In this document: piece after piece, positions 48,196 to 64,000 of the stretch
Numbering within the stretch: the first letter of the stretch is position 1
Layout: each line of letters opens with the position of its first letter
DNA from: a phage
Assembly: GCA_014435945.1 (NCBI GenBank)
Contig: GCA_014435945.1_4088.1
Length of the DNA: 64,000 nucleotides
Strand: one strand, 5' to 3'
The notes under the pieces: generated by a model
Told to the model about the DNA's origin: nothing
The model's input: only the letters and a program-made list of their open reading frames with translations
Database searches by the model: none
Program-made: the position numbers and the translations under genes

Positions 48196-48200
48196 CTAAT

Positions 48201-48585: not shown

Positions 48586-48598
48586 TAGAGATAATACT

Positions 48599-48781
48599 AT
48601 GTATAAAGACTTCTATATAAGTAAACTAAAAGAAAACGAACAAGCATGGGTTAACAATTTAATCCCCTTGGCAATGACTCAATACGAATTTAATATGTGT
48701 ACAAAGATTGTTTTAACTACTAATGATATCTCTAATACGTACTACTTCCTAGTAAGAGTACTATATGGTACTTTGAAATAA
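48599..48781 (+). CDS. mini-protein family S member
   Basis: ORF track. Confidence 0.5.
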   Translation: MYKDFYISKLKENEQAWVNNLIPLAMTQYEFNMCTKIVLTTNDISNTYYFLVRVLYGTLK

Positions 48782-48792
48782 TAAGGTATACT

Positions 48793-48999
48793 ATGCAGAA
48801 CATAAAAAATTATAAAGAGTACTATATAAGTAAACTACCACCGACTGACCAAGCATGGATTAGATCTATAATAGTACTTGCATTTAATAGATATGCATTT
48901 AACAGATGTACCGAGATTGCTATAGACCCTTATAATATTAAAGAGAATGTACAGCATAATCAGTACTACTATATGTTAATGCTTATATATAGGAAGTAA
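48793..48999 (+). CDS. mini-protein family S member
   Basis: ORF track. Confidence 0.55.
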   Translation: MQNIKNYKEYYISKLPPTDQAWIRSIIVLAFNRYAFNRCTEIAIDPYNIKENVQHNQYYYMLMLIYRK

Positions 49000-49124
49000 T
49001 TCAACATATAGACAGGGGAAGCTCCGCAGGGAAAGCATTGGACAGGCTTTAACATATGTTATATATGTTAAAATTCAGCCTGGACAAATGCGATCACTAG
49101 GATTCTCCCCAGGCTAAACCCCGT

Positions 49125-49410
49125 AATCATATGTAGTCATAAGTAATCATATATAAACATTTAAGTAATCATTTATAATCACAGTAGTGATCAGTAGTGA
49201 GTACTAGAGTGTAATAGAGTGTAATAGAGTACAGGAATGTGCACGTTTAATCAAGAACGTAGCAGTACTGCCCCAAAAGTATTCAGTACTGAAGGTGTCG
49301 ATATGCCACTAAGTAGGCAGAGGAAGTCTGCCGTACTTTGTAGTTTCCAAGCTCCTTTTCCATTTTGCAAATTACATCAAATGTAATCAAAAGTAATCAC
49401 GCAATGATTA
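49125..49410. repeat. cluster of short direct repeats (GTAATCA about 6 times; AGTGTAATAGAGT twice)
   Basis: Read directly in ORF-free region. Confidence 0.5.
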
Positions 49411-49448
49411 GTACTGAATTATTACTTTCACCTTAATTACAATTACCC

Positions 49449-49468
49449 TTTTACCCTTCGGGGTAAAA
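49449..49468 (+). other. perfect hairpin TTTTACCC-TTCG-GGGTAAAA (UUCG tetraloop) with no T-run
   Basis: 8-bp inverted repeat. Confidence 0.5.
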
Positions 49469-49686
49469 TTCCATTACCCCTTGAGGCTCCAGCAAAAAGT
49501 TGGTTAGTACTCCATCCTAAATCTCGATCCTAAAAATTTTGGAGTACCTATGAAATAAAAGTTGGATCTTCGAAAGTTGAAATTTACGTTGGGACGTTTA
49601 TGATTTGTGGGATATAATGATGTTTGTAGTCGGGTAGTTCTCAAGAATATCAGTACTGAATGGTGAAAGAAAGTTATTGACATTAT

Positions 49687-49716
49687 GATTCAGTACTGTA
49701 TAATGTTCTACATAGA
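49687..49716 (+). promoter_or_regulatory. orphan sigma70-like promoter (TTGACA-N17-TATAAT) with no ORF for over 1 kb
   Basis: ttgacattatgattcagtactgtataat. Confidence 0.45.
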
Positions 49717-50029
49717 GAGATGAGTTGCTGCGAACAATTCATTTACTCTACCTCCTGTCGTGAGACAGTACAGAAAAGATAGTTCCTCCTATTGGTGGTG
49801 CATCTTTTTGAACCTCATATGAAAATCGTAATAACAGTACTGATATTAACAGAATGGTATTAGTACTGATTTTAATCTAAAGCATTATGCCACCAGCTTG
49901 TGCTGGTGGATTCCCTCTAACAGTATTCAGTACTACATGATGGTCTTCATCCTCCTAGGGTAACATAGTGAGGGCTATGATGGCAGTACTGAATACTCCT
50001 TTCACAAGATAGATCTATGGTATAGTACT

Positions 50030-50225
50030 GACGGATTTTGGGCGTAGTTACCCTGGGTGGATTTTGGACGTAGATATGTCTAGCCCTCCAGAAGTCTGGA
50101 AGTAAAGATGGCTATCCATCTAGACGGCTAAACGGCTAGATTTCTAGATGGCTGTATGGCTAGACGTTTGGACGGCTAAACGGCTAGATGGTTACACGTC
50201 TGGATGTATAGACGGCTAAATCAAA
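50030..50225. repeat. iteron-like direct repeats: GACGGCTAAACGGCTAGAT twice (50123-50141, 50171-50189), partial copy at 50211, and GGATTTTGG(G/A)CGTAG twice
   Basis: Read directly. Confidence 0.6.
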
Positions 50226-50916
50226 ATTTTTATTTTGTTTTTTCCAATAGTTCCCCTACCGCGTGGGGATAGTTTCCCCGCAGTATCTGGAGTTAGATTT
50301 TTCTGAATCTGGAATCATTATCCCCGTTTTAGCCTGGTATGTCAACCGCCTGGATGAATATTTTTAAAAAATAATCTAGTACTGAATTTTGGGCGTAACT
50401 ATGCACCCGGTGGGCTTGAGTCTTTCTCGACTTGATGGAACTATTATACAGTACTGGAAAAATAAAGCAATACCCTGGAAGCAAAAAAGTTTTAATTAAT
50501 TTGCTTGCTATCCTGGGCCGGACTATGGTACTATATTTCAGTACTGAGAAAGTGCGTTTACCTGCTAGGGTGCGGGAGTGTATCCTTTTTAAATTTACTG
50601 AATTTTGGGCGTAATTCCGCACCCCCAGGGGTATCCGCTTTCTCGCGTCTATGTAGTAATTATACGCTTTTTCGGTGCTGAGTCAATAGCTAAAAACAAA
50701 ATAATTGAAAATAATTTAACGCGTTTAAACGGCCCGTAAAGCCCTGGTTAGCTGGTGGCGGTGCAAATGTATAGCTTAGGTGTATTAATGCGTTAGAATG
50801 CGATTGAGGACGTTTTACGGGGTATAGTACTGATTCAGTACTGAAAGATTGTTCTCCCTGGATTGTTCCAGTACTCCTATATAGAAAGAAAACTATTTTA
50901 AAAGTATTTGTAGAAA

Positions 50917-50950
50917 GTACTTGCAAAGTATTGGGAAAGGTGTAGAATGT
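50917..50950 (+). promoter_or_regulatory. sigma70-like promoter (TTGCAA-N16-TAGAAT) followed by leader hairpin
   Basis: Seen directly. Confidence 0.5.
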
Positions 50951-51005
50951 TTTACATCGAGACGGGGGATACGCTCCCGACTCACTTTTAAAAGAGATTA
51001 AAACG

Positions 51006-51368
51006 ATGGCGACTCAAATCAATACTATCATGCTTAACCTGGTTTCTTTCCGTGAAGAGATGAAAGATCTTCCCGCTGAGACTGTACGGATTCACATTGC
51101 AGCTTATCGGGAATTGATTGCAATGCTGCCGCTTAAGCGTGAACAGTACGCCGCTACTGCAATGCTGGACGCAATGATACATAAGATGATCCAGACTGAT
51201 TTAACGATGGCTTATCAGTACATGGGCGAAATGTTTGCAGTGTATAGCAAGCCAGTACCAGGAATGGAAAGTACAGAAGTATTACACGGCTTAAACTTAA
51301 AACAAGATGCATGGGATAATATGCCTCGTTTCCTGGTATGGGCTGATAGTGGAAAGATTTACGAATAA
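51006..51368 (+). CDS. hypothetical protein
   Basis: ORF track; promoter and hairpin upstream. Confidence 0.5.
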   Translation: MATQINTIMLNLVSFREEMKDLPAETVRIHIAAYRELIAMLPLKREQYAATAMLDAMIHKMIQTDLTMAYQYMGEMFAVYSKPVPGMESTEVLHGLNLKQDAWDNMPRFLVWADSGKIYE

Positions 51369-51375
51369 GTTTTTA

Positions 51376-51440
51376 AAAGTACTTGCAAAGTAAGTTTAAA
51401 GGCGTATAATACTTTACATCAGGTGGGGAATAGTTCCCCA
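51376..51440 (+). promoter_or_regulatory. right-region promoter unit: AGTACTTGCAA(-35)-N16-TATAAT then leader hairpin GTGGGGAA-tag-TTCCCCAC
   Basis: Same unit recurs before most genes from 51 to 64 kb. Confidence 0.6.
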
Positions 51441-51461
51441 CTATATAAGAGGATTAAAAAA

Positions 51462-51701
51462 ATGGCTAAATCAAAAATGTTCTTAGGTCACAAAAACAAA
51501 ACTCAATGGAATGTAAGCCTTTGGATTAATAACGACGAATCATTATACCGGTTGGCCCAGGACTTTATTGCCGCTAACACTAATCGTAATGATGCGGCCC
51601 GTCATATGATGCTATTTTTAGAACAGACTGGACAAGATAAAACGCCGGACGGCTTTAAGTATAGCACTACTGCGATCCGTGCGGCGATGGTTGGAATGTA
51701 A
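51462..51701 (+). CDS. hypothetical protein; paralog of 53854..54093
   Basis: Shared GHKNKTQWNVSLWINN..ESLYRLAQ...TPDGFKYSTTAIRAAMVGM. Confidence 0.55.
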   Translation: MAKSKMFLGHKNKTQWNVSLWINNDESLYRLAQDFIAANTNRNDAARHMMLFLEQTGQDKTPDGFKYSTTAIRAAMVGM

Positions 51702-51784
51702 TAGAATATATTAAAAGTACTATTGCACGGTGATAGTACTTTATAATAGTGTTTTATTCATACACCAACGATAAGGGTAACAGC

Positions 51785-52051
51785 ATGAATATTATATATT
51801 TTGCGACGCGTGAACAAGCTCGGATCGCCGCACGCCAGGACGGGGCGACGTTTAAAGATATGGGCGTACAATCGGAACGTGGTAAACGTTGGGCCATTGT
51901 AAAGCGTAGTACCGCCAGATCATTACAGTACTGGTTAGCGGCCTTAAAAAGACCCGATAGTGTATCGCGACGAGTGGTAGAAATAAAGCTCGACCGAAAG
52001 GGCAACCGCGTGACCGTGTACCGTACTAAAAAGATTGCAGTACTTGAATAA
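51785..52051 (+). CDS. hypothetical basic protein
   Basis: Internal ATG with AAGGG SD. Confidence 0.45.
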   Translation: MNIIYFATREQARIAARQDGATFKDMGVQSERGKRWAIVKRSTARSLQYWLAALKRPDSVSRRVVEIKLDRKGNRVTVYRTKKIAVLE

Positions 52052-52138
52052 AAAGTACTTGCAAACTAAGTTTAAAAGCGTATAATGTTTTACATCGAGA
52101 GCGGGAATAGTTCCCGCCTATAACCTGGAGTAATAAAA

Positions 52139-52369
52139 ATGACTAATATGTATATGACTGAAGTTAAAACCGTAAAAGATACTACCACTAATAAAACTAC
52201 TTACTTACAGCGGATCTGTGGTGTATGGCAACGTATCAGAAAATCAAAGTACTTTAAATTAACATCATATGCAAACCGTTCGGATTCATTCAGTACTGAA
52301 ATAAAAGGTAATAAAGTACACCAATACGGCACTTATTATTATTATAGCCTGGACGCGATTGCAGTATAA
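52139..52369 (+). CDS. hypothetical protein
   Basis: ORF track; promoter unit at about 52061. Confidence 0.45.
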   Translation: MTNMYMTEVKTVKDTTTNKTTYLQRICGVWQRIRKSKYFKLTSYANRSDSFSTEIKGNKVHQYGTYYYYSLDAIAV

Positions 52370-52639
52370 GCAGTTTACAAATCTTTACAATTGCCAGTAT
52401 TGACTTATTTTGTCAGTACTGGCATAATGTATTCATTGGCAGATAAGCCGTAGCCCATAGGGTGCGGAAGTGTATCTATAGAAAAAGTAGTTTAGTACAG
52501 TTACAATTGTGCACCCGGTGGGTTAGCTGTTGTCATGGGGTATATTATACCAGTACTGGATAGTGCTGTCAATACTTTTTTTACTATTCAGTACTGAAAA
52601 ACTATTTGATAAAAAGTACTTGCAAACTATGTTTAAAGG

Positions 52640-52735
52640 CGTATAATGTTTTACATCAGGACGGGGAACGAAATAAGTAACTTCCCGTTAAGTAGCCCAG
52701 GAGTAAGGCACACGAAAAACTCCCCTGATAAAATA
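52640..52735 (+). ncRNA. candidate structured RNA element between tandem promoters (copy 1)
   Basis: About 90-nt segment nearly identical to 63797-63885; compensatory change in ACGGGG/CCCCGT stem. Confidence 0.35.
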
Positions 52736-52797
52736 GTTTGACAATTGTTTTTAAAAGCGTATAATACTTACATAAACTACTGAATGAGGGTTACAAA

Positions 52798-53409
52798 ATG
52801 AAAACTATCACTACTACTACTTATGTTATGGATTTTTCTGAATTGAACGCAGAACAAAAAACGTCAGCTATCGAACTAGTTCGGGAACGTGAAAAAAACT
52901 CAAACGACGATTATTTTTCTGAAAGTGAAATTGAACACTATAAAGAAACAGTATTGCCGGAATATGGCATTAATGACGCTGAAATACAATTCAGTGGTTT
53001 TTGGTCCCAGGGTGACGGTGCATCAATCAGTACTGACCACGTTGACGCAGTGAAGTTTTTACGCAAGGTAAGAGCATTAACTAAGTATCGCTCAATCCGT
53101 CACCTGCTGAATGAAGATGATTTGGCGATGAGTGTAAAGCGTTCGCACTCCCACTACTCGCATGAGAATACTGTAAGCGGGTACATTGAATCGGCTTACA
53201 CTGATTTAACCGCAAAACAAGAAACGTTAGTTAATGAGCTTGAGGAACTACTCACTGACACTATTCGTGAATTATCCCGCAAGTTGTACCGTGATTTAGA
53301 GAATGCATATGAGGATCAATTCACTACTGAAAACATTACGGCACTGATTGAGGGTAACGAATATCAATTCAATGTTATTGATGGCGTAGTAGAATCAATC
53401 GAATATTAA
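52798..53409 (+). CDS. hypothetical acidic protein (203 aa)
   Basis: ORF track; SD GAGGG. Confidence 0.5.
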   Translation: MKTITTTTYVMDFSELNAEQKTSAIELVREREKNSNDDYFSESEIEHYKETVLPEYGINDAEIQFSGFWSQGDGASISTDHVDAVKFLRKVRALTKYRSIRHLLNEDDLAMSVKRSHSHYSHENTVSGYIESAYTDLTAKQETLVNELEELLTDTIRELSRKLYRDLENAYEDQFTTENITALIEGNEYQFNVIDGVVESIEY

Positions 53410-53502
53410 TTTAAAAAGTACTTGCAAACTAAGTTTAAAGGCGTATAATACTTTATATCGAGGCGGGGAGTGGTTCCCCGCTCATACTAAAAGGGTAACA
53501 AA

Positions 53503-53769
53503 ATGAAAACTTTAAATATCACAACTGCACATCAATTGGTTCGGGATGCGATGGATCATGTGCAAGATTTCTTCCCTGATGTAAGTGTAGTGACTTATGA
53601 AAAAGGTACTTGGACTTATTCAACAATTAACGGTTATGAGCCTGATTTTGATGATCTGGAAGAAATGGAATTTAATTTTGATCTGCTGAATGATGCCGCC
53701 CGTGAAGTGGGAAACGATGTTCAATACATTGATGGAGTAGTCGCACCTGATGCCGTAAAAGGATTATAA
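53503..53769 (+). CDS. hypothetical acidic protein
   Basis: ORF track; promoter unit upstream. Confidence 0.5.
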   Translation: MKTLNITTAHQLVRDAMDHVQDFFPDVSVVTYEKGTWTYSTINGYEPDFDDLEEMEFNFDLLNDAAREVGNDVQYIDGVVAPDAVKGL

Positions 53770-53853
53770 AAGTACTTGCAAACTAAGTTTAAAGGCGTAT
53801 AATACTTTATATCGAGGCGGGGAGTGGTTCCCCGCTCAAACGAGGATTAAAAA

Positions 53854-54093
53854 ATGGCTAGTACTAAAACTTACAACGGGCACAAAAACAAAACTCATTG
53901 GAATGTTTCCTTATGGATTAATAACGGTGAGTCATTGTATCGGCTTGCTCAAAGTTGCATCGCACAAAGTAGAACTAAAGATATTGCTGCGGAATGTATG
54001 TACCGCAGATTAAAAGCCAACGGTACTACTACAACGCCGGACGGATTCAAGTATAGCACTACGGCGATCCGTGCTGCAATGGTTGGAATGTAA
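53854..54093 (+). CDS. hypothetical protein; paralog of 51462..51701
   Basis: Shared motifs; identical promoter unit. Confidence 0.55.
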   Translation: MASTKTYNGHKNKTHWNVSLWINNGESLYRLAQSCIAQSRTKDIAAECMYRRLKANGTTTTPDGFKYSTTAIRAAMVGM

Positions 54094-54151
54094 TATTCAG
54101 TACTGTAACAATGGCGGGGAATGGTTCCCGCCTTTATTGAGGGTTTATCTA

Positions 54152-54412
54152 ATGAGTAAAGTAATTAACTATACAGTACTAAGCAAGTCATTATCTATTA
54201 GCCAGTGCACCGATGGTTATTGGTTTTATGATGAAACGCGTGGAATGAATTTAGCTATGCGTGCAAAAACTGCTGAGGCGGCGTATCTTGAGGCACTGGA
54301 ATACTACCAGGAACGTTTAACGGAAGTAGAAGAAGATTATAAAAGCCTCAAAGCGAAAGTAGATCATTTCGTCGGTCAATTCATCGAGGAAGACGCCGAC
54401 AAACAATATTGA
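54152..54412 (+). CDS. hypothetical protein
   Basis: Internal ATG with GAGGG SD. Confidence 0.45.
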   Translation: MSKVINYTVLSKSLSISQCTDGYWFYDETRGMNLAMRAKTAEAAYLEALEYYQERLTEVEEDYKSLKAKVDHFVGQFIEEDADKQY

Positions 54413-54498
54413 AAAAGTACTTGCAATTAGTTTTCAGTACTGTATAATGGTTTACATCAAAGGGAGAAATGGTTCTCCCTGGTAATGAGGAAAATAAA

Positions 54499-54720
54499 AT
54501 GGCTAATATCACTACTCTTTCCCAACTGGAAGCACTGGTTAAATCTATGCGGGAACATGCCGACAAAATCGGCGTACAAGATCCAGCCGTTTGCTTCTGC
54601 GACGAATTGAATGATGATACCCTGGTAATAGCAGAAGTCCAGGACGTTTCTAACTATTCCTCGCGTTACACTGGCGGCGTAGCAAATAAAGGTGACTTCT
54701 GTTTATACCTTACAAAATAA
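54499..54720 (+). CDS. hypothetical protein
   Basis: ATG after SD GAGGA. Confidence 0.5.
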   Translation: MANITTLSQLEALVKSMREHADKIGVQDPAVCFCDELNDDTLVIAEVQDVSNYSSRYTGGVANKGDFCLYLTK

Positions 54721-54963
54721 CAACGCGGGGAGATAATAACTCCCCGTTACTTTTTCAGTACTGAATCATTTAATAGACGGATCTCGGCACCCGGTGGGTT
54801 AGTGACTGTTTCGTCTTGATGTAGTAATTATGCCAGTACTGGATGCACTTGTCAACAATTATTTTCCAAATACTTTTTATTAAAATACTTGCTATTAGTT
54901 TTTAAACGCGTATAATGTTTTGCATAGGGGGAGCGGTTCCCCTGGTAACTAAGGAATAAGAAA

Positions 54964-55200
54964 ATGGTCGAACAAATCAAATCAACGTCTTCGAATGTAA
55001 CGGGAACGGTAGCACACTTTACTAGTGATGAATCGCGGGGCGTTCCCTATTGTGCTGTACATGTAAACACTGAGGGTAACTACTGGTTTACGGTTTACGG
55101 ATCATATTCATTTGGACGGCCAGGGCATCAAAAAATTCTGGATAAAGTACAACCAACGGGTAAAAATATCACTGCCGAAATGTTTTATAAAAAATCATAA
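54964..55200 (+). CDS. hypothetical protein
   Basis: ORF track. Confidence 0.5.
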   Translation: MVEQIKSTSSNVTGTVAHFTSDESRGVPYCAVHVNTEGNYWFTVYGSYSFGRPGHQKILDKVQPTGKNITAEMFYKKS

Positions 55201-55284
55201 AGTACTTGCAATTAGTTTTTAGTACTGTATAATATTTTACATCGCAAGGGGAAACGGTTTCCCCTGGTAACTAAGGATAATCAA

Positions 55285-55584
55285 ATGAAAGTAGCAATCA
55301 TCGCCCTGGCTTTATCTGTTTCCTCTTTCGCTGTTAATGCGTCGTTAGATGTACCTGGTGATAAATTCATTCAGTGCACCGTAGCAATGACAGATGAAAG
55401 TACTGGCGAGATTGTATTAAAGGATTTAGAGATCCAGCCGGAAGCATTTAAAAACGGCCCGTTCCATGAAGAAGACGAAAACGGTAGCACAACAATTTAT
55501 TATGATGCCAGTACTAAACGTGGTTCTGTCACTGTAATGGATACGGAGAAAGTAACTCACACCGGAGTAATTAACTGTTTATAA
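55285..55584 (+). CDS. secreted protein (signal peptide)
   Basis: N-terminus MKVAIIALALSVSSFAVNA. Confidence 0.55.
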   Translation: MKVAIIALALSVSSFAVNASLDVPGDKFIQCTVAMTDESTGEIVLKDLEIQPEAFKNGPFHEEDENGSTTIYYDASTKRGSVTVMDTEKVTHTGVINCL

Positions 55585-55666
55585 TAGTTTGACTATGTAT
55601 TACAGTACTGTATAATAGATACATAAGGGGCGAATAGTTTGCCCCTGGCATAAAGGGGAAAACATT

Positions 55667-55897
55667 ATGACAGCACGAATTGTTTTACTTAACGCTGGAA
55701 GTACTACACAACTCCTTAACGCCGTGCATTATGATATTGAAACGAGCGTTAATCTTATCAGTACTGTAGTACTATTGGACACTGGAAAGGTCGCCAATGA
55801 TAAAGCGATTGCAGGTATACTAACTGATCTCAAGCCTGGTAGCAGTACGCCAATAACGTTAAATGGCAAAGTGTTTAATATTTTACTTACTGATTAA
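55667..55897 (+). CDS. hypothetical protein
   Basis: ORF track. Confidence 0.45.
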   Translation: MTARIVLLNAGSTTQLLNAVHYDIETSVNLISTVVLLDTGKVANDKAIAGILTDLKPGSSTPITLNGKVFNILLTD

Positions 55898-55903
55898 GTA
55901 CAT

Positions 55904-55926
55904 AGCCCACCTGGTGGGCTTTTTTG
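55904..55926 (+). terminator. intrinsic terminator AGCCCAC-ctg-GTGGGCT plus T5
   Basis: Inverted repeat and T-run. Confidence 0.65.
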
Positions 55927-55994
55927 TTTTTGTAGTATCGTAGTACTGAGATACTTTAAAAATAGTTTTAAAAAAGTAGTTGACATTACCACAA

Positions 55995-56085
55995 AAAGGC
56001 GTAGAATGTATTACATCAAGACGGGGAGCACTAAGTAGACCGCCAGTAAGTCGAACGAAAAACTGGACACGTCGAGAAAACTTTG
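55995..56085 (+). ncRNA. candidate structured RNA element, divergent copy
   Basis: Shares acgggga...aagtag.cc..cagtaag..acgaaaaact with 52640 and 63797. Confidence 0.25.
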
Positions 56086-56130
56086 ATACACTAATAAACG
56101 TAAACTAAACTTTAATTGAGGATTTATAAA

Positions 56131-56613
56131 ATGGCTAATGTAAAATCATTCATCAAAGCACTGGTAGCAAATGAAACTAACGTCGCGGCAGAGATCCTGG
56201 CTGAACTGGATAACGATACCATGAAAGCGGTACGCAATAATTTTAACATCGCGTACAGTACTGCGAAAGAACTACAAGCAAATAAAGCGGCAGAAATTGA
56301 AGCGGCAAAGGCGGCCCGTGAAGCAGAACTACAAGCAACAATCGAAAGTATTCAGGCGGCAGTAGTTGGATTGGATCTGGAAGTAGTTACAGAGATGGCA
56401 CAAAAAGCCCTGGCGGTTAAGTATGGGGAAGACAAGCCAGAAGTAAAAGCCAAAAAATGGATTCAGGAACGCGTAGCGGTAGTACTGGACAACGGGGAAG
56501 AATATCTGATTCCGGTGCGTGGTAACTGCATTGCGGTAGTACTGGATGCGATTAACTCCAGTGGTATGACTCGCGAGGAATGGATCGAAGCTCATCGCAA
56601 AGTTGAAGCATAA
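56131..56613 (+). CDS. hypothetical Ala/Glu-rich protein
   Basis: ATG after SD GAGGA; track start 56116 is TTG. Confidence 0.5.
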   Translation: MANVKSFIKALVANETNVAAEILAELDNDTMKAVRNNFNIAYSTAKELQANKAAEIEAAKAAREAELQATIESIQAAVVGLDLEVVTEMAQKALAVKYGEDKPEVKAKKWIQERVAVVLDNGEEYLIPVRGNCIAVVLDAINSSGMTREEWIEAHRKVEA

Positions 56614-56634
56614 CAATTAAAGTACTGAATCACT

Positions 56635-56662
56635 AGCCCACCTTAAACGGTGGGCTTTTTTG
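56635..56662 (+). terminator. intrinsic terminator AGCCCACC..GGTGGGCT plus T6
   Basis: Inverted repeat and T-run. Confidence 0.65.
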
Positions 56663-56898
56663 TGTTTATCGTTTACCAGCTCCACATCACCGCCTAGAAA
56701 CGATTCTAACGCATTAAACTGATTATCTGATGCATTGCCCTAGCTGGTGGCGTTAAGGTCGTTGTAATGCGATTGAGAGCGTTTAAAGTATTTTGCAAAA
56801 AGTAATAAAAAGTACTTGCACGATTAAGAGATTAGCGTATAATGTTTTACATCGAGAGGGGGAAACGGTTCTCCTTCCAAATCAAAGGAATAAAAACA

Positions 56899-57126
56899 AT
56901 GGCTATTATCATTACTCGCGTATCTGGTACTACTGGCAACGAACAAGTAGTTGCAGTCATTACCAACAAGGAAGGTGCGGAATTGCAAAATGCAATGAAT
57001 ACCTGGGCCGTTAATGAGTTCGGTCAGTGGGCAAGTGTAGCATACATTGAAACCTATCAAGTGCCGTCGATTAGTTTAACTGATTTGGGCGTTGAGCGTA
57101 TCCTTTGCCTGGATGAATTAAATTAA
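56899..57126 (+). CDS. hypothetical protein
   Basis: ATG after SD AAGGAA. Confidence 0.5.
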   Translation: MAIIITRVSGTTGNEQVVAVITNKEGAELQNAMNTWAVNEFGQWASVAYIETYQVPSISLTDLGVERILCLDELN

Positions 57127-57212
57127 AAAAAGTACTTGCAAAGTAAATCGAATAAAGTATAATACATTACATCAAGGGGAGAAATGGTTCTCCCCACTAC
57201 AAGGAAACTAAA

Positions 57213-57356
57213 ATGAAAACTTGTCAATGTGGTCAGAAATCTATTACGGGTTTAAAGCGGGGCGTTGCTCTTTGCCAGTACCATTATAATTTACAAGTAT
57301 GGGGTAAAGAATGGGCCGACCAGGTGGAAGCAGCAAAGAAAGCAAAAAGTAAGTAA
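57213..57356 (+). CDS. putative 47-aa Cys-containing basic protein (MKTCQCGQKS...KAKSK)
   Basis: Read manually; promoter, hairpin and SD upstream. Confidence 0.4.
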   Translation: MKTCQCGQKSITGLKRGVALCQYHYNLQVWGKEWADQVEAAKKAKSK

Positions 57357-57435
57357 AAATATTATCACAGTACTATTGACATAGTTTGATAGTACTGGCA
57401 TAATAGATTTTATCAAGACAACTGAGGAAAATAAA

Positions 57436-57648
57436 ATGGCTATCATCACTAAAATCAAAGTTAACAAATCACTGGTTAAGCTGGAAGAAGTGAAAGAAGG
57501 TTATAAAGTATCTTGGTGCGGCATGTATCGGATATTCACTGATATTGATGACGCAATCAATTATTACAGCGACACGGTTAAAAACTTTGTTCGTGCTGAT
57601 GTGGTTATGGCAGTGGCAACGCACAAAGCAGCGAAAGAAAGTAAGTAA
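57436..57648 (+). CDS. hypothetical protein
   Basis: ORF track; same 3' end and downstream promoter as 57213..57356. Confidence 0.5.
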   Translation: MAIITKIKVNKSLVKLEEVKEGYKVSWCGMYRIFTDIDDAINYYSDTVKNFVRADVVMAVATHKAAKESK

Positions 57649-57737
57649 AAATATTATCACAGTACTATTGACATAGTTTGATAGTACTGGCATAATAGAT
57701 TTTATCAAGACAACATATTAATTTAAGGAATACAAAA

Positions 57738-58061
57738 ATGGCTAAAACTATCATTAACACCGTTTCCCTGGCTGCAATCCGTGCAATCAATGTTGACGGT
57801 AAACGTTGGACTGATTCATATGGCAATACTTATCATTCTTGTCATGTAAGCGTTGAACTGGATAACGGTTTGAATGATCTGGCGGTTGAATCATTTACTT
57901 ATGGCTATGAAGATGCATATCAACAAACGGCGTTATCTCTCTTAAAGGAATCAGTAGACGGGCTTAATACTGATGAAACCTCCCTTACTCGTGTGTGCAA
58001 TGATCTTAATATCCCGTTGCATTGTACTGTACAGAATGTTAAACGCAAAAAAGATCTTTAA
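57738..58061 (+). CDS. hypothetical protein
   Basis: ORF track. Confidence 0.5.
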   Translation: MAKTIINTVSLAAIRAINVDGKRWTDSYGNTYHSCHVSVELDNGLNDLAVESFTYGYEDAYQQTALSLLKESVDGLNTDETSLTRVCNDLNIPLHCTVQNVKRKKDL

Positions 58062-58141
58062 TTAGCTTTACTTTATGCAGATACTTTGATATAGTGTCTG
58101 CATAGGGGAAAGAAATTAAATTAACTTAAGAGGATCGTATA

Positions 58142-58411
58142 ATGAAAAATATCAGTACTTTAATCGATGCAGGTACTCATGTTCGTCGGTCTATGGTTGC
58201 AACCAGTACTACAAAACAAGTAGCGAGCGGTTATCTTGTATTTGTGCACGATGGTAAACTCCTGGAACGTTCAATCAATTTTGATGTTAAAAACAATTGC
58301 CGTTTTATTATCTTTAAGCGTGAGCAATATAAAATTGATTTACCAGCAAAGCCCATTAGTGGGGCGTACAACGTGCAATCATTGTTTGAACGTCAACCAT
58401 ACACCTATTAA
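58142..58411 (+). CDS. hypothetical protein
   Basis: ORF track; SD GAGGA. Confidence 0.5.
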   Translation: MKNISTLIDAGTHVRRSMVATSTTKQVASGYLVFVHDGKLLERSINFDVKNNCRFIIFKREQYKIDLPAKPISGAYNVQSLFERQPYTY

Positions 58412-58462
58412 TCAAAACATCGTTAGCGGTCGATTCAGGCCGCTTATATTGGGGATTATACC

Positions 58463-58735
58463 ATGAACGTTAATCAAGTACTGAATGAGATCGAAAGCAT
58501 CATTAAACCGATGAAGCGTACTGATGCTATGTTAACACCGGAAGAATGCCGCCTTTATGAGCGTTACAGCGTCGAACAAGTCCAGGCAATGGCTATGGCT
58601 ACCCCAGCCGTTAAACCGCCTGAGAATGCGTTACAGGACGTTACAGGGGATTATATCATCAATCCAGTACTAGGGAAGATGGCTGCAATCACCGAAGATC
58701 AACAAGACTACTTAAGCCAGTACTTAAAAGGTTAA
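58463..58735 (+). CDS. hypothetical protein
   Basis: ORF track. Confidence 0.5.
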   Translation: MNVNQVLNEIESIIKPMKRTDAMLTPEECRLYERYSVEQVQAMAMATPAVKPPENALQDVTGDYIINPVLGKMAAITEDQQDYLSQYLKG

Positions 58736-58740
58736 TTAAT

Positions 58741-58950
58741 ATGCTTACTGTACAGGATAAGATCGACATCTTAAAGGTTAATATGTATGTGATTGATGCC
58801 GTACCTGGTAAAGTATTTGCATACGATGACACTACTGTAAGCGATTTCTACTATAGCCAGGCCGTGGGGGATCTTTCTGTACAGTCGGTTATTGAAAACG
58901 TAGTTAATGCAGCGTATGAGCATTTACTTTCAAATAGTACTTGCAATTAG
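58741..58950 (+). CDS. hypothetical protein
   Basis: ORF track. Confidence 0.45.
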   Translation: MLTVQDKIDILKVNMYVIDAVPGKVFAYDDTTVSDFYYSQAVGDLSVQSVIENVVNAAYEHLLSNSTCN

Positions 58951-59019
58951 TTTTTAAACGCGTATAATGTTTTACATGAAGGGGAGAAATGATTCTCCCC
59001 ACTAATTAAGGAATATGAA

Positions 59020-59166
59020 ATGAAAGCATCAAAAAAGAGTACTAACAAGAAAGCACGTTCAACCTTAGATGGGGTATTCCCTTTACGTTTTGTTGATGAA
59101 GTAGTTTCCTACCCGCCGGGCCTTACTCCTGAGATGGTAGAAAGTTTGCGTAAATCTAAAAAATAG
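59020..59166 (+). CDS. putative 48-aa basic protein (MKASKKSTNKKARS...)
   Basis: Read manually; promoter, hairpin and SD AAGGAA upstream. Confidence 0.4.
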   Translation: MKASKKSTNKKARSTLDGVFPLRFVDEVVSYPPGLTPEMVESLRKSKK

Positions 59167-59248
59167 TACTTGCAATTAGTTTTTAGTACTGTATAATAGT
59201 TTACATGAAGGGGAAAACGTTCCCCTTACACCTAACGAGGAAAGTATA

Positions 59249-59500
59249 ATGGAAACAATTTTAATCAAAGACACTGCTACTACTGTAACTTATGATAATG
59301 ATTGCATTATCCCAGGGACTGAGTACGGCGAACGTGTACCCGTTCAAGTAGAGATTGATACCACATACATCGACAAGGCTGACCAGTGTATCACTATTGT
59401 AATTGGTGAATATCGTTTTCTACCAGAAGAGATCCAAAAATGGCAGAATATGATTGACCGTGCGAAATTAGTCGCACAAAGTTTAAAATACAAAGTTTAA
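59249..59500 (+). CDS. hypothetical protein
   Basis: ORF track. Confidence 0.5.
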   Translation: METILIKDTATTVTYDNDCIIPGTEYGERVPVQVEIDTTYIDKADQCITIVIGEYRFLPEEIQKWQNMIDRAKLVAQSLKYKV

Positions 59501-59586
59501 AATAATACTTGCAATTAGTTTTTAAACGCGTATAATGTTTTACATGAAGGGGAGAAATGATTCTCCCCAATAACAGGAGAAACAAA

Positions 59587-59739
59587 ATGAAACAATACAA
59601 CGCTCGGTTTGATGTTACTATCGGTAACGGCAAAGGTCAATTCTCTTTCAGTACTCGCAAAAGTTATACAGAAAACTTCCTGCGTAATTGTGCACTGACC
59701 GCCGCACAAATTAAACATTACTTTCAGGCTAAAAAATGA
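59587..59739 (+). CDS. putative 50-aa protein
   Basis: ATG after SD AGGAGA. Confidence 0.4.
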   Translation: MKQYNARFDVTIGNGKGQFSFSTRKSYTENFLRNCALTAAQIKHYFQAKK

Positions 59740-59825
59740 AATCATTAGCTTATTACAGTTCGGCCCTGGTCGGTGCATTGATCGCGGCATTGTTAGTAAC
59801 CTATCTATTCTTTATGGTGATTTAA
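59736..59825 (+). CDS. putative 29-aa single-TM peptide (MKSLAYYSSALVGALIAALLVTYLFFMVI)
   Basis: Read manually; ATGA overlap with upstream stop. Confidence 0.3.
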   Translation: MKSLAYYSSALVGALIAALLVTYLFFMVI

Positions 59826-59969
59826 ATGAATCCAACAGGCTTAAATTATAAAAGTTGTTCGGCGTTTACGAAAGCAAATAAAGCGAATGCACGTAAAGCG
59901 AAAGTACAGGAATACATCAAGCAAGGCATGACGCGAAAGGCGGCGATTCTAAAAGCTAAAAATAAATGA
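59826..59969 (+). CDS. putative 47-aa basic protein
   Basis: Read manually; directly follows previous stop. Confidence 0.35.
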   Translation: MNPTGLNYKSCSAFTKANKANARKAKVQEYIKQGMTRKAAILKAKNK

Positions 59970-59974
59970 AAAAA

Positions 59975-60010
59975 GTGGTTGACTCCGGTCAGCCATTTTG
60001 CTATTATATA
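59975..60010 (+). promoter_or_regulatory. PeSL-like terminator-promoter cassette
   Basis: gtggttgactccggtcagccattttgctattat. Confidence 0.6.
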
Positions 60011-60179
60011 TTCATTGAGAGATAGCTCACTAGCCCACAGGGTGCATAAGTGTATCTATTATATAAGTATTGAGTACTGAAAACTATTTTTAAAAAGTAC
60101 TTGCAAACTATCTCAATAAGCGTATAATGTTTTACATCGCAAGGGGAAATGGTTTCCCCTGGTAATAAGGAAACGAATC

Positions 60180-60521
60180 ATGACTATCTCAATTGCTCAA
60201 TCTAACTTTGAAAATGAAATCATCGCCCAGGCACTGCGTTTAAATGATGGTCGGGCCGAAATTAATTACGGTTTCAATTCAGGCGGTTGTGAAAAATATC
60301 AGTACTTTGTAACGGCTGATGGCGGTGTCCTGGGGATCAATACAGTTATTGTAAACATTCAGAAAATTAATTTCAATGATCCAGAAGATAGCCAGTTTTA
60401 CATCACGGGCGTGAACGTGAACTATGAGGATGATTATCTAACTGATGATCACACTGGCGAGAAGTTAGAAAGTGCATACGGTGAAGATGATTATCAGTCC
60501 GGTCCAGAAGATTTCGAATAA
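60180..60521 (+). CDS. hypothetical acidic protein
   Basis: ORF track. Confidence 0.5.
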   Translation: MTISIAQSNFENEIIAQALRLNDGRAEINYGFNSGGCEKYQYFVTADGGVLGINTVIVNIQKINFNDPEDSQFYITGVNVNYEDDYLTDDHTGEKLESAYGEDDYQSGPEDFE

Positions 60522-60616
60522 TATAAAAAATAGTTTGACAATAGATTATAGTACTGTATAATAGTTTACATCAAGGGGAGAGATGATTCTCCCCACTAAC
60601 AGAGAGAGAAAACAAA

Positions 60617-60799
60617 ATGGCTGAATTAATCGCTCGGAATACAATTGAAGGCATTGAAGATGTAACGTTGTCCTATGATTCAGATAAAAAAGTTTATGTT
60701 GTTCGTTATGGTTTGATTGGTGTTAACGTTGATTATATTGATGAAGCCTTTGAAAAATACTTTGAATTTATTAATATGGCTTATAATGATTATCGTTAA
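60617..60799 (+). CDS. hypothetical protein
   Basis: ORF track. Confidence 0.5.
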   Translation: MAELIARNTIEGIEDVTLSYDSDKKVYVVRYGLIGVNVDYIDEAFEKYFEFINMAYNDYR

Positions 60800-60889
60800 A
60801 AAATAGTTTGACAATAGTTTTAAGTACTGTATAATAGTTTTCATCAAGGGGAGAAAAACTTCTCCCCACTAACAGAGAGAGAAAGCAAA

Positions 60890-61102
60890 ATGGCTAATAT
60901 CTGCACTGTACTGAAAAATGCAAAACAAGTTTTATTTTCTGATCACGATCATTTAAACAAGGATATTACGGGCGTTCGGAATATCAAAGATGTAAAAAGT
61001 GTTATGGGTATCTATTGCAATATGAAACGTGTTGGTACGTTCGGCGACAAAGTACTATACCAGGCAGGGGATTATAACTTTACATTAACCATTATCAATT
61101 AA
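60890..61102 (+). CDS. hypothetical protein
   Basis: ORF track. Confidence 0.5.
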   Translation: MANICTVLKNAKQVLFSDHDHLNKDITGVRNIKDVKSVMGIYCNMKRVGTFGDKVLYQAGDYNFTLTIIN

Positions 61103-61192
61103 AATATATTACCAGTACTATTGACAACGTTTGATAGTACTGTATAATAAGTTTTATAAACAGTAGTTAACTTAACCTAAGAGAGAAACAAA

Positions 61193-61336
61193 ATGATCGC
61201 ACTGGATTCATTCATCGACGCAGTACTGGCAAAAACTGGCGAGGATCTGACCGCAGAACAATACGCGATGATCGAGCAATGTCAGCAAAACGGTAAATCG
61301 GTGAAAGATACTGTTAAGATTATCCGCAAGATGTAA
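61193..61336 (+). CDS. putative 47-aa protein (MIALDSFIDAVLAK...)
   Basis: Read manually; promoter at 61120-61150; SD GAGAGA; terminator follows. Confidence 0.4.
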   Translation: MIALDSFIDAVLAKTGEDLTAEQYAMIEQCQQNGKSVKDTVKIIRKM

Positions 61337-61342
61337 GATTAT

Positions 61343-61370
61343 AGCCCACTGGTTAACGCTGGTGGGCTTT
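61343..61370 (+). terminator. probable terminator hairpin AGCCCAC..GTGGGCT with short T tail
   Basis: Inverted repeat. Confidence 0.45.
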
Positions 61371-61441
61371 AATCATTTACCCTATACAATGCCAGTACTA
61401 AACCGTTTATCTCGTTAGAATGCGTTACAGGACGTTTAACA

Positions 61442-61639
61442 ATGATTAGCATGAAATCAGTACAAAAACAAATAGAAACATTATCAAAAATTAAACGTAA
61501 ACAATACTCCTTAGAATATACAATCAATGGTAACTATCATCTAATGAAAGAAAATAATTTTATAGTCATTGATGAATCATTGCAAATTATTAGTATAGTA
61601 CTGAAAGCATTAATCAATGACAGAAAAAAATTAAAATAA
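61442..61639 (+). CDS. hypothetical protein
   Basis: ORF track. Confidence 0.4.
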   Translation: MISMKSVQKQIETLSKIKRKQYSLEYTINGNYHLMKENNFIVIDESLQIISIVLKALINDRKKLK

Positions 61640-61968
61640 TCTATTGACAATATCCTCCAGTACTGGCATAATACTTACATCAAGACGAGAACGTCACTAA
61701 CCCATAGGGTGCACAAATGTAACTATATAATATCGATCAATAAATGATCAAAAAAGTACTGGATCAATTTAGCATAAGGAGTATAATTCTGATCAATTCT
61801 TGATCAAAGGCAATAAACGCAGTTGAATTTATATAGACAATACAAAGGCGTTACTATCCGTGGTAATGCTGGTGGATATGTAGTATCATATGGTTTGAAT
61901 AAGATAAACACTAGTAGTATTATTGTAGCATTACAGTACTATAGTATTTTTATAATGAGGTTAAAATA

Positions 61969-62226
61969 ATGGCTGTAGGATTTGCGAAGGACGGGGCCGA
62001 ACAAGACGAGATTAACGCAGTGATTCAGGCCGCTGTAAACCACGCTAGAAAGCAAATTAACGCACAAAGAGAATCACTGGTACATTGCCTCGACTGCGGC
62101 GATAAAATTCCTGAGAATCGACGCCAGGCCGTTATAGGGTGCATGTATTGTATTACTTGCCAGGAGGATCATGATAGTACTTTTAAAAGAGATCCGCGTA
62201 ATTGTTGGCATAGATCTATGAGATAA
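61969..62226 (+). CDS. TraR/DksA-family C4 zinc-finger protein
   Basis: CLDCGDKIPENRRQAVIGCMYCITCQ matches the CxxC-N17-CxxC DksA/TraR signature. Confidence 0.7.
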   Translation: MAVGFAKDGAEQDEINAVIQAAVNHARKQINAQRESLVHCLDCGDKIPENRRQAVIGCMYCITCQEDHDSTFKRDPRNCWHRSMR

Positions 62227-62290
62227 AAAGTAATTGACAGTACTGAAAGATAGTGTATAATGTTTTATATCTTAACTGAGGATAGAAATC

Positions 62291-62647
62291 ATGGGAATAC
62301 AACATATCACGCGTACTACTGACAATGGCGAGATCACTGGTTATCAAGTACAGGGCAAAGTAGCACAATTGCAGTACTGGTTTGTTAAACGTGGAATCAT
62401 TGCACCGGATCTTGATTATGACCGTGTAGCGTTTATTGATTCTCTTTATGTTGATCCTGATAGTCGGGGCAATGGTGAAGGTAACGAATTAATGAATGCC
62501 TTTATCGATGCCGCCGATGATTCAGATTGTATCATCTTAGAATGCGATACGGGAGAAGATAACGCCTTTAATCTTAAAGAATGGTACGAAGGTTTCGGAT
62601 TCGAGGTATTGATAGATAGTGAATATCCTATCATGATTTTATCATAG
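62291..62647 (+). CDS. possible small GNAT-like acetyltransferase
   Basis: Weak motif-A-like segment VDPDSRGNGEGNELMNAF. Confidence 0.35.
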   Translation: MGIQHITRTTDNGEITGYQVQGKVAQLQYWFVKRGIIAPDLDYDRVAFIDSLYVDPDSRGNGEGNELMNAFIDAADDSDCIILECDTGEDNAFNLKEWYEGFGFEVLIDSEYPIMILS

Positions 62648-62725
62648 TACTTGCATTTAGTTTTCAGTACTGTTATAGTACTTGCATCAAGGGGAAACAT
62701 CTTCCCCTACTAAGAGGAAATAAAA

Positions 62726-62914
62726 ATGGAAAACTTATCAAGTATTTTAGTACAAGATGATTTCGGTAATCCTGGAAGTGCTATCATTGTTCGGGGTAAT
62801 AAAGCAACGTTTGTTATTGCTGGTGGACCCGTACAGCGTAGCATTAAAAATAATGCTGTTACCATTAATAATGTACGCTATCGCTTAGATAAAGAATTAA
62901 TTCATAAACTGTAA
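62726..62914 (+). CDS. hypothetical protein
   Basis: ORF track. Confidence 0.5.
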   Translation: MENLSSILVQDDFGNPGSAIIVRGNKATFVIAGGPVQRSIKNNAVTINNVRYRLDKELIHKL

Positions 62915-62999
62915 AAAAGTACTGGACAATAGATTATAGTACTGTATAATAAGTTACATGAAGGGGAGAAATGATTCTCCCCACTAAGAGGAAAGAAAA

Positions 63000-63212
63000 A
63001 TGCAAGGTCAACTAATCGTTCGTAAATGGTCTGATACTAACGCTAAACCGTGGGATGTACAATACATCGCCCCCAATGGTGAATCACGTTATCAGCCAGG
63101 TGTAACGCATAGTACTGAGCAATTCGCCGCCGCTCACCGTGAACGCCTGTTACAATCAATGCAGCAAGGTTTCGGTGAAAAATTCATTCAGGATCATTGG
63201 CTGAAAGATTAA
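63000..63212 (+). CDS. hypothetical protein
   Basis: ORF track. Confidence 0.5.
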   Translation: MQGQLIVRKWSDTNAKPWDVQYIAPNGESRYQPGVTHSTEQFAAAHRERLLQSMQQGFGEKFIQDHWLKD

Positions 63213-63298
63213 AAAGTACTTGCACTGTACTGAATAAAGTGTATAATGTTTTATATCGGAAGGGGAATAGTTCCCCTCCGAACAAAGAGGAAAGTATA

Positions 63299-63472
63299 AT
63301 GGTCCAGGTAGAATTAACAGTACTGAAAGATCTGTTTTATCGGATTGGTACTACTGGCGAATATCCGAAGGGTGATAATGCAAAACTTTACGTATCACTC
63401 GACTTATGGCAACGCGAACAATTAGCAACGGCCTGGCGTAAAGGCAAAGCAGATAGCGAGGTGAAAGCATGA
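63299..63472 (+). CDS. hypothetical 57-aa protein
   Basis: ATG after SD AGAGGAAAG. Confidence 0.45.
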   Translation: MVQVELTVLKDLFYRIGTTGEYPKGDNAKLYVSLDLWQREQLATAWRKGKADSEVKA

Positions 63473-63618
63473 AAGAATTCTTATTTGAAGTAGTGTTTCA
63501 AGGTGTCGGTAGTAACCAACTGATTCGCTCAAGTGGTTATAATGTTAACCAGGCATGGAATAACATTAAACAAATGTACCCGAACGCTATCACATATCGC
63601 AACCCGAAAGAAGTTTAA
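63469..63618 (+). CDS. putative 49-aa protein
   Basis: Read manually; ATGA overlap with upstream stop. Confidence 0.35.
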   Translation: MKEFLFEVVFQGVGSNQLIRSSGYNVNQAWNNIKQMYPNAITYRNPKEV

Positions 63619-63634
63619 AAATAATTGAAAAAGG

Positions 63635-63668
63635 GATTGACTCCGGTCAGTCCCTTTGCTATTATATA
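63635..63668 (+). promoter_or_regulatory. PeSL-like terminator-promoter cassette
   Basis: gggattgactccggtcagtccctttgctattat. Confidence 0.6.
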
Positions 63669-63796
63669 CGCATAGAAACAAATCAGCCCACAGGGTGCAT
63701 AAATGTATCTATTGTTTGCTGGTGGCTAGTACTGAAAACTATTTTTAAAAAGTACTTGCATTGTACTTAGAATAAAGTATAATGTTTTACATCAGG

Positions 63797-63885
63797 ACGG
63801 GGAACGAAACAAGTAACCCCGTTAAGTAGTCCAGGAGTAAGACATACGAAAAACTCCCCTGATAAAATAGTTTGACAATAGAAAG
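63797..63885 (+). ncRNA. candidate structured RNA element between tandem promoters (copy 2)
   Basis: Near-identical to 52640-52735. Confidence 0.35.
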
Positions 63886-63931
63886 TAAAAGAGTATAATA
63901 CTTACATCAACCACTGATAAGGAAACATAAA

Positions 63932-64000
63932 ATGCGGATTCTACTGACAGCTAACGAAATCGAACAAGTACTGACTACTAACCTGGAAGACTGGAAACGT
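63932..64000 (+). CDS. hypothetical protein, 3'-truncated by window end
   Basis: ATG after SD AAGGAAA; open to the edge. Confidence 0.35.
   Translation, partial: MRILLTANEIEQVLTTNLEDWKR

Follow-up and report, generated by a model that had tools for sequence, protein, structure and literature searches.

A duplicated promoter cassette and its probable part in the shuffling of small early genes in an Asteriusvirus jumbo phage

Why do two unrelated small genes of a phage end in the same codons, and why does the same promoter follow each of them? The question is raised by a 64,000-nucleotide stretch of phage DNA (GenBank assembly GCA_014435945.1, contig GCA_014435945.1_4088.1; hereafter the window), in which an initial annotation had read by eye a duplication of about 75 bp (57340-57420 against 57633-57713) and had interpreted it as a footprint of recombination between promoter cassettes. 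A repeat search and direct string comparison show that the eye was essentially right: the pairwise comparison gives exact identity over 77 nt, not less than had been read, in the form of a direct repeat on the + strand that we term R77. Comparison of related genomes leads us to propose, with a probability of roughly 0.8, that R77 is a regulatory cassette of the promoter-early stem-loop (PeSL) type, whose recombination adds, removes and reorders small early genes.

The R77 repeat and the genes at its junctions

The window comes from an Asteriusvirus jumbo coliphage of the PBECO4/121Q group (RaK2-like), with Turkey5 as its best match (98.3%), and the locus is an array of small + strand early open reading frames (ORFs), most of which have their own predicted promoter. 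The two copies of R77 are spaced 292 bp from start to start, one behind ORF B and one behind ORF C (Table 1). Their edges are sharp, with gapless identity ending at 57346 on the left and at 57422 on the right; if one 3-nt gap is allowed, a weak similarity reaches 57332/57627 (86/91 positions) through A/G-rich codons. The left end of the repeat, AA AGT AAG TAA, is the last 11 nt, stop included, of both ORFs (..KSK*), the repeat beginning 8 nt ahead of the TAA stops and running on with AAAAATATTAT. The identical 3' ends reported initially (..KAKSK of B, ..KESK of C) account for these 11 nt, and the stretch after them for the other 66 nt, in which an A/T-rich segment leads to a promoter set in an inverted repeat and then to ~11 nt of leader. 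The promoter had been noticed as well, and each copy does contain a predicted one, TTGACA-17-TGnCATAAT. The two ORFs had been called unrelated, and we find no protein similarity between B and C. From the -10 hexamer it is ~18 nt to the point of divergence into the separate 5' untranslated regions (5' UTRs) of ORFs C and D; the ribosome-binding sites and start codons (GAGGAAAATAAA-ATG for C, AAGGAATACAAAA-ATG for D) lie 13-23 nt past R77, outside the 77-nt identity.

An exact match of 77 nt within 64 kb cannot arise by chance. Elsewhere in the window, blastn-short finds partial R77-like sites only (61113-61142 and 52398-52428), and R77 is 97-100% identical in 36 Asteriusvirus records. At least 8 genomes that were sequenced independently have the two-copy arrangement, which is therefore not an assembly artefact.

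Does gene content vary at this repeat? We cross-tabulated ORFs B and C in 33 related Asteriusvirus genomes, duplicates removed. Both genes are present in 8 genomes, C only in 8 and B only in 17, which places B in 25/33 and C in 16/33. The junction sequences were compared in ten relatives. The order A-B-C-D is found in the window, Turkey5, 121Q, A4 and vB_Ec-M-J, the order A-B-D in EC.P1 and WPEC5, and the order A-C-D in CRJP21 and E9.1. SP27 and ph0011 are also A-B-D, with a diverged D allele (D', which replaces ORF D in some relatives), and UB, which has lost D, reads A-B-E. At these junctions the R77 cassette stands directly after B or C wherever either gene occurs. In genomes of the A-B-D order a single R77 leads into the 5' UTR that belongs to D, as a crossover between the two copies would produce; the B-R77-D junction is exact in EC.P1 and WPEC5, and the locus spans 1209 bp in EC.P1 against 1501 bp in the window. 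Phage fEgEco12 also lacks C: aligned with the window, it gives two blocks that share exactly 77 nt, and its sequence is 292 bp shorter here.

Single-copy versions of the repeat do exist in related phages (e.g. fEgEco12, EC.P1 and WPEC5), and these genomes, together with the 77-nt overlap, the breakpoints at other cassettes and a chimeric cassette in phage A73 (below), support the recombination between promoter cassettes that was proposed initially. The word footprint has to be qualified, in that we see a segregating polymorphism within a general shuffling system rather than a single fossil event. Likewise, the cassette serves as the junction in C-less genomes such as fEgEco12, EC.P1 and WPEC5 but not in the B-less ones, which use a 7-nt microhomology, TAAAATG.

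Three more one-unit insertions or deletions (indels), of 340, 272 and 261 bp, separate the window from fEgEco12 in 14.7 kb of shared terminal repeat, with alignment overlaps of 59, 101 and 62 nt that each fall on a promoter cassette. All overlapping-block indels between the two phages (4/4) break inside duplicated cassettes. In the window, the cassette pairs 59160-59259/59499-59596 (around ORF 59249-59500) and 60524-60622/60797-60895 (around ORF 60617-60799) are 76.7% and 90.9% identical, so that the R77 pair is the most perfect example; the units bracketed by these two pairs are absent from fEgEco12. Cassette 61100-61161 is single in the window and duplicated in fEgEco12, around the extra 261-bp unit.

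The cassettes are also more uniform than the genes that they separate. In related jumbo phages identity is 94-100% for the class I promoter cassette upstream of B (pB), for R77 (97-100% by itself) and for the D-E intergenic region, while the ORF modules are 76-100% identical (ORF C 82-95%), so that the cassettes act like conserved linkers joining variable cargo. Identities of neighbouring modules are discordant, as seen for a 483-nt ORF that is 83% identical to Turkey5 and 99% to EC.P1, and for ORF A, 100% identical to Turkey5 and 89% to vB_Ec-M-J. Thus, no single tree applies to the locus.

In vB_Ec-M-J the homologous region is annotated within a direct terminal repeat of 21,525 bp, and the direct terminal repeat of fEgEco12, 20,993 bp long, has been confirmed by restriction digests (PMC13070987). 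Position 1 of fEgEco12, which is its left physical end and the start of its terminal repeat, aligns to window position 49312. This alignment places the R77 pair ~8 kb inside the ~21-kb terminal repeat and makes 49312-64000 terminal-repeat sequence, the window thereby crossing the junction between unique and repeated DNA.

We find the same cassettes in unrelated coliphages. Vequintavirinae phages A7_1 and W70 have the order A-B-X-C, with C between two R77-type cassettes that have diverged from each other. Their relative A73 is without C and has one cassette, which agrees with the upstream copy as far as the -10 region and with the downstream copy beyond it; the crossover is confined to 19 shared nt, CATAATAACTTTTATCAAG. 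Judged by this switch, A73 is an independent replicate of the loss of C in which the chimera is still visible. About ten small ORFs of the window (51462-61102) have homologues in the ~140-kb Vequintavirinae phages, at 57-91% amino-acid identity and in a different order. Gene X, which lies between B and C in A7_1 and W70, is found at 60890-61102 in the window. In outra, a member of the Stephanstirmvirinae, the order is A-X-B, and at least A, B and X occur there. The shared genes and cassettes indicate a pool of early-gene cassettes common to unrelated coliphages.

These phages also bear on the origin of the duplication. In Vequintavirinae, B ends in ..AAAGTAATTGA without R77 after it, and has only AAAGTAA in common with the end of C, ..AAAGTAAGTAA. 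The left edge of the R77 repeat in the window coincides with this AAAGTAA microhomology, suggesting that the copy after B may have arisen by a microhomology-mediated join to sequence natively following C.

Promoter, inverted repeat and competing explanations

The promoter in R77 matches the sigma-70 consensus at 11/12 positions and has an extended -10 element, TG-n-CATAAT, according to a consensus scan; transcription would start at ~57411 (copy 1) and ~57703 (copy 2). Phages of this clade have been reported to encode a sigma factor and no phage RNA polymerase (PMC11895373), and RpoD-like promoters have been reported to be concentrated ahead of short early ORFs (PMC5259590). Across 15 diverged R77-type copies in four phage groups, the -35 and -10 hexamers are invariant or nearly so. 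Terminal repeats of two phages, Muenster (Klebsiella) and Hallingskeid (Erwinia), were a source of diverged copies. Hallingskeid has the core ATTATCACAGTACTATTGACATAGTTTGATAGTACTGGCATAAT unchanged, and the promoter architecture is also kept in Muenster and in Vequintavirinae. A divergent promoter on the minus strand, where the mirrored arm reads TGTGATAAT, was considered and rejected, as the scan gave no good -35 and there are no minus-strand genes nearby.

The inverted repeat overlaps the -35 hexamer and in copy 1 holds two AGTACT boxes, at 57369-57374 and 57391-57396. As RNA, it is predicted to fold, at minimum energy, into a 24-bp hairpin with interruptions that spans 57353-57413 (-19.5 kcal/mol; z = -4.1 relative to shuffled sequences). 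All 15 diverged class II (R77-type) copies can pair along the inner 11-bp stem; of the five changes in the stem among these copies, one is compensatory (C-G for U-A) and the others are one-sided, and every one of them keeps the pairing. This covariation slightly favours a hairpin at the RNA level over a site at the DNA level. We discarded the full 24-bp hairpin as a conserved structure, since the relatives support the inner 11 pairs alone, pairing in the outer helices not exceeding that of column shuffles. An intrinsic (Rho-independent) terminator was also discarded: the stem is A/U-rich, UUUU comes 8 nt past the inner stem, and the hairpin is absent from the output of the terminator scan. Rfam gave no match above the gathering threshold, the hairpin-shaped mir-1000 model scoring 22.9 bits at both copies against a threshold of 50.

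To place R77 among its relatives, we scanned the window, positions 1-21000 of Muenster (mostly terminal repeat) and the first 24 kb of the Hallingskeid record. Two clade-wide promoter classes are found, in each of which AGTACT immediately precedes the -35 and AGTACTG the -10. Class I reads AAAGTAC-TTGCAA/TTGACA-N9-CAGTACTG-TATAAT and is followed in many copies by a G-run/C-run leader stem-loop, while class II, the R77 type, reads CAGTACTA-TTGACA-N7-GATAGTACTGG-CATAAT. Promoters with twin AGTACT boxes number 16 in the Muenster stretch and 13 in that of Hallingskeid. The latter phage has at least nine class II copies, with a 44-nt core identical to that of R77; where near-identical copies are neighbours, they too flank one small ORF at a time. 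In the twin boxes we may be seeing a phage-specific promoter element. A scan of viral contigs with CTATTGACA-N7-GATAG gave chance matches only, among the matches listed, and the core pattern AGTACTATTGACA-N7-GATAGTACTG had no match in IMG/VR.

The palindromic word AGTACT is the most over-represented hexamer of the window, with 266 sites against 23.8 +/- 5.4 expected from dinucleotide shuffles (11-fold), at a density that rises from ~2.9 per kb over 1-44000 to ~7 per kb over 44000-64000. Within long ORFs it occurs 75 times against 24.9 +/- 4.6 after synonymous-codon shuffling (~3-fold), and Ser-Thr is encoded as AGT-ACT in 50/123 cases, compared with 17% expected. The enrichment is ~20-fold in the terminal-repeat loci of Hallingskeid and Muenster and weak in Vequintavirinae; in the literature searched, we found no paper that describes an excess of AGTACT in jumbo phages. 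It is conceivable, though we consider it unlikely, that the twin-AGTACT inverted repeat is a recognition element for a factor of RaK2-like jumbo phages and that the word is selected genome-wide; such a factor may be, for example, an early-transcription regulator or a DNA-marking or DNA-binding system. The duplicated cassette would then be one visible piece of an undescribed genome-wide DNA signal, and a functional signal of this kind would be a separate, more novel lead.

What, then, does the inverted repeat do? At the RNA level, the hairpin might act as a terminator, an attenuator or a processing or stabilising signal for the upstream transcript, insulating each gene. The stable fold, the inner stem that pairs in all diverged copies with every departure keeping it, and the short U-run after the stem all point in this direction, and PeSL stem-loops lying over promoter boxes have been shown to terminate transcription (PMC2839356). 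On the other hand, the stem is A/U-rich, the U-run stands 8 nt from the inner stem or inside the outer one, and the terminator scan that passed over R77 did find canonical G+C-rich terminators elsewhere in the array (55904-55920 and 56635-56656); the AGTACT words themselves could also explain the conservation. We regard a role in RNA as possible, with the odds against it. Alternatively, the AGTACT inverted repeat could be a DNA operator for a dimeric phage or host protein that controls early promoters, the duplication being a by-product of placing the same operator before co-regulated genes; this would be compatible with a history of recombination. The palindrome straddles the -35 and the extended -10, AGTACT adjoins both hexamers in two promoter classes and three genera, and its excess, still ~3-fold above synonymous-codon shuffles in long ORFs, is as expected of a DNA word recognised by a protein. 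We nevertheless find the operator doubtful: the one-sided arm changes (T->C or A->G, giving G-U on the + strand) keep the RNA pairing and break the DNA symmetry, class I promoters have both boxes without the extended palindrome, and the candidate binding protein is hypothetical.

Neither of these proposals concerns how the genes came and went. Here the competing account is that the copies are identical because a promoter in frequent use is under purifying selection, or because of a single tandem duplication, and that the changes in gene content are unrelated illegitimate events in which the cassette has no part. Selection alone can indeed hold much sequence, as the 44-nt core identical even in an Erwinia phage demonstrates, and some rearrangements at the locus use start-codon microhomology in place of the cassette. 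However, the identity runs past the promoter into a coding 3' end and into the leader, all four overlapping-block indels against fEgEco12 lie inside duplicated cassettes, the A73 cassette is chimeric between the two flanking copies, and the lost unit is exactly one repeat period of 292 bp. This account is, in our judgement, improbable. That R77 is a miniature mobile element, a host-derived repeat or an assembly artefact is effectively refuted. The internal inverted repeat and the presence in several phage families would fit a mobile element, but searches of 5,426 E. coli genomes and 72,556 plasmids gave no match to R77, and this eliminates both a host repeat and a common mobile element; its copies lack target-site duplications and occur only at gene junctions and in one orientation; and the same two-copy arrangement recurs in the independently sequenced genomes mentioned above.

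The preferred explanation, recombination at PeSL-type cassettes, has to answer several points that weigh against it. The high conservation of the cassettes could be due to promoter selection alone. B-less genomes join C's ATG to B's promoter and leader at the 7-nt microhomology, and both these genomes and UB have junctions at start-codon or ribosome-binding-site microhomology, away from the cassette. The support from covariation is thin, with one compensatory pair, a mostly invariant stem and unsupported outer helices, and the A/U-rich hairpin without a U-tract directly after it is unlike a canonical terminator. Since recombination scrambles the phylogeny, each event could be read as a loss or as a gain. 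Finally, promoter activity and any role of the inverted repeat (terminator, attenuator or operator) are predictions from consensus matches and conservation, and the enzymology of exchange is likewise inferred.

With these points in mind, we propose that R77 works as follows. Each copy is predicted to drive the gene downstream, C in the case of copy 1 and D in that of copy 2. The two copies, 292 bp apart, offer 77 bp of perfect homology, recombination across which would remove C together with one cassette; crossover, single-strand annealing or copy-choice could achieve this, within a genome, between terminal repeats or between co-infecting genomes. The reverse or an unequal exchange would insert a gene or swap alleles. 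The other promoter cassettes along the ~21-kb terminal repeat would be subject to the same process, and cassettes would also be exchanged with unrelated coliphage families. The promoter would thus have two roles, as an expression signal and as a conserved linker for the modular shuffling of small early genes.

Neighbouring genes and other features of the window

The features of the locus are collected in Table 1. None of ORFs A-D has a match in Pfam, and the two Pfam matches of ORF E are both under the curated cut-off; in PHROGs, A, C, D and E belong to families without assigned function and B to no family. ORF B contains a CxC...CxxH pattern (C4, C6, C21, H24), which suggests a small zinc-binding protein, and its C-terminal residues differ between phage families exactly at the start of R77. 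The leader stem-loop of class I promoters, GGGGAGAA-N4-TTCTCCCC, lies between the -10 and the ribosome-binding site (57157-57220, 58962-59025, 59530-59593 and similar sites) with no U-tract after it, and is probably a 5' stabilising or regulatory mRNA hairpin.

Table 1 Features of the R77 locus and related promoters, in window coordinates.
Feature	Position	Strand	Description
ORF A	56899..57126	+	75 aa; PHROG 13850; first of an A-B-C block shared with Vequintavirinae and Stephanstirmvirinae phages
Class I promoter cassette upstream of B (pB)	57127..57212	+	AAAGTAC-TTGCAA-N16-TATAAT, leader stem-loop GGGGAGAA..TTCTCCCC, ribosome-binding site
ORF B	57213..57356	+	47 aa; ends ..KAKSK*; last codons inside R77 copy 1
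R77 copy 1	57346..57422	+	ORF B end, promoter, first ~11 nt of ORF C leader
Inverted repeat, copy 1	57368..57397	+	CAGTACTATTG (57368-57378) pairs with TGATAGTACTG (57387-57397), 8-nt loop
Predicted promoter, copy 1	57376..57404	+	-35 TTGACA 57376-57381, 17-nt spacer, -10 CATAAT 57399-57404
292-bp unit	57423..57714 (equivalently 57346-57637)	+	C 5' UTR, ORF C and one R77; occurs whole or not at all
ORF C	57436..57648	+	70 aa; PHROG 35559; ends ..KESK*; cargo between the two R77 copies
R77 copy 2	57638..57714	+	After ORF C; predicted to drive ORF D
Inverted repeat, copy 2	57660..57689	+	Identical sequence at offset 292
Predicted promoter, copy 2	57668..57696	+	-35 TTGACA 57668-57673, -10 hexamer 57691-57696
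ORF D	57738..58061	+	107 aa; PHROG 6246; predicted to be driven by R77 copy 2
Class I promoters	54421, 55206, 59170
Class II promoters	57376, 57668, 61121

Two further observations concern other parts of the window. The 99-amino-acid (aa) ORF at 55285-55584 has a signal-peptide-like N-terminus and a 30%-identical counterpart in the Vequintavirinae phage W70, and its fEgEco12 homologue (g10) is annotated as 'protein spackle', a superinfection-exclusion protein of T4. On the minus strand, ~19 paralogous ORFs (369-398 aa) with RCC1-repeat (beta-propeller) domains follow one another in tandem at 22763-43931; the paralogues are highly diverged, two members being 26% identical.

Significance and relation to known systems

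If the proposed explanation is right, promoter-cassette shuffling of the PeSL type extends from T4-like to RaK2-like jumbo phages, where it would take place inside a terminal repeat of early, probably host-takeover, genes. Jumbo phages and two unrelated families of ~140-kb coliphages would draw on the same circulating promoter-plus-gene cassettes. This would provide a concrete mechanism by which small early genes are replaced so rapidly; in other phages, many genes of this kind counter host defences or shut off the host. A rule for annotating and comparing such regions is also suggested, namely to expect breakpoints in the cassettes, and for phage engineering the cassettes would mark places where genes can be inserted or removed without harm to the phage.

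Long direct terminal repeats with early genes are known from T5-like phages, which have their pre-early and early gene clusters there. Both systems have arrays of small host-takeover genes (here probable ones) with strong host-type promoters (here predicted), a likeness in location and gene type only: the genes are not homologous, and the two-step DNA injection of T5-like phages is not indicated here. Conserved linkers at gene boundaries are a theme of modular phage evolution, as in Susskind and Botstein's module theory and the boundary sequences of lambdoid phages. R77 resembles these in that short conserved sequences between unrelated genes act as crossover points that reassort modules. It differs in that the linker is a promoter cassette present in tandem in one genome, which allows intragenomic deletion and duplication in addition to exchange between genomes.

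The closest comparison is with the PeSL cassettes of T4-like phages (Arbiol et al. 2010, PMC2839356; Comeau et al. 2014, PMC4122927). These consist of a stop codon in an A/T-rich stretch, a sigma-70 promoter, a stem-loop, a Shine-Dalgarno sequence and a start codon (PMC2839356). R77 likewise starts at the upstream stop codon in an A/T-rich stretch, has, at the sequence level, a sigma-70-like promoter and a predicted stable stem-loop that overlaps the -35, and is followed by a Shine-Dalgarno sequence and start codon at its 3' end, just outside the 77 nt. We found no report of PeSL-type shuffling in the RaK2/121Q group in the literature searched. The phage studied here is an Asteriusvirus, a RaK2-like jumbo phage and not a T4-like myovirus; PeSLs are defined by architecture and not by homology, so that this mismatch of lineage limits membership in the taxonomic sense only. 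R77 also lacks sequence similarity to published PeSLs, and its A/U-rich stem is built around two AGTACT boxes instead of a G-run and a C-run. Promoter activity, terminator activity and mini-circles have been demonstrated for PeSLs, those with stem-loops overlapping the promoter boxes terminating transcription (PMC2839356), whereas in R77 the promoter is predicted and any terminator activity or mini-circle would be putative.

PeSLs are concentrated in hyperplastic regions, where they bracket ORFs that differ between sister phages, and their recombination has been proposed to excise mini-circles (PMC2839356, PMC4122927). Those regions are internal, whereas R77 lies in a direct terminal repeat of ~21 kb, and R77-type cassettes and their cargo are common to Vequintavirinae and Stephanstirmvirinae phages. 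As with PeSLs, R77 stands in a hyperplastic region of small ORFs, beside ORFs that vary between relatives, and indels between relatives leave a single or chimeric cassette, as seen in the 59-101-nt overlaps and in A73. The correspondence extends to single genes: in RB49, ORF192 lies between two PeSLs where phi1 has one PeSL (PMC2839356), which is the same configuration as that of ORF C in the window compared with fEgEco12.

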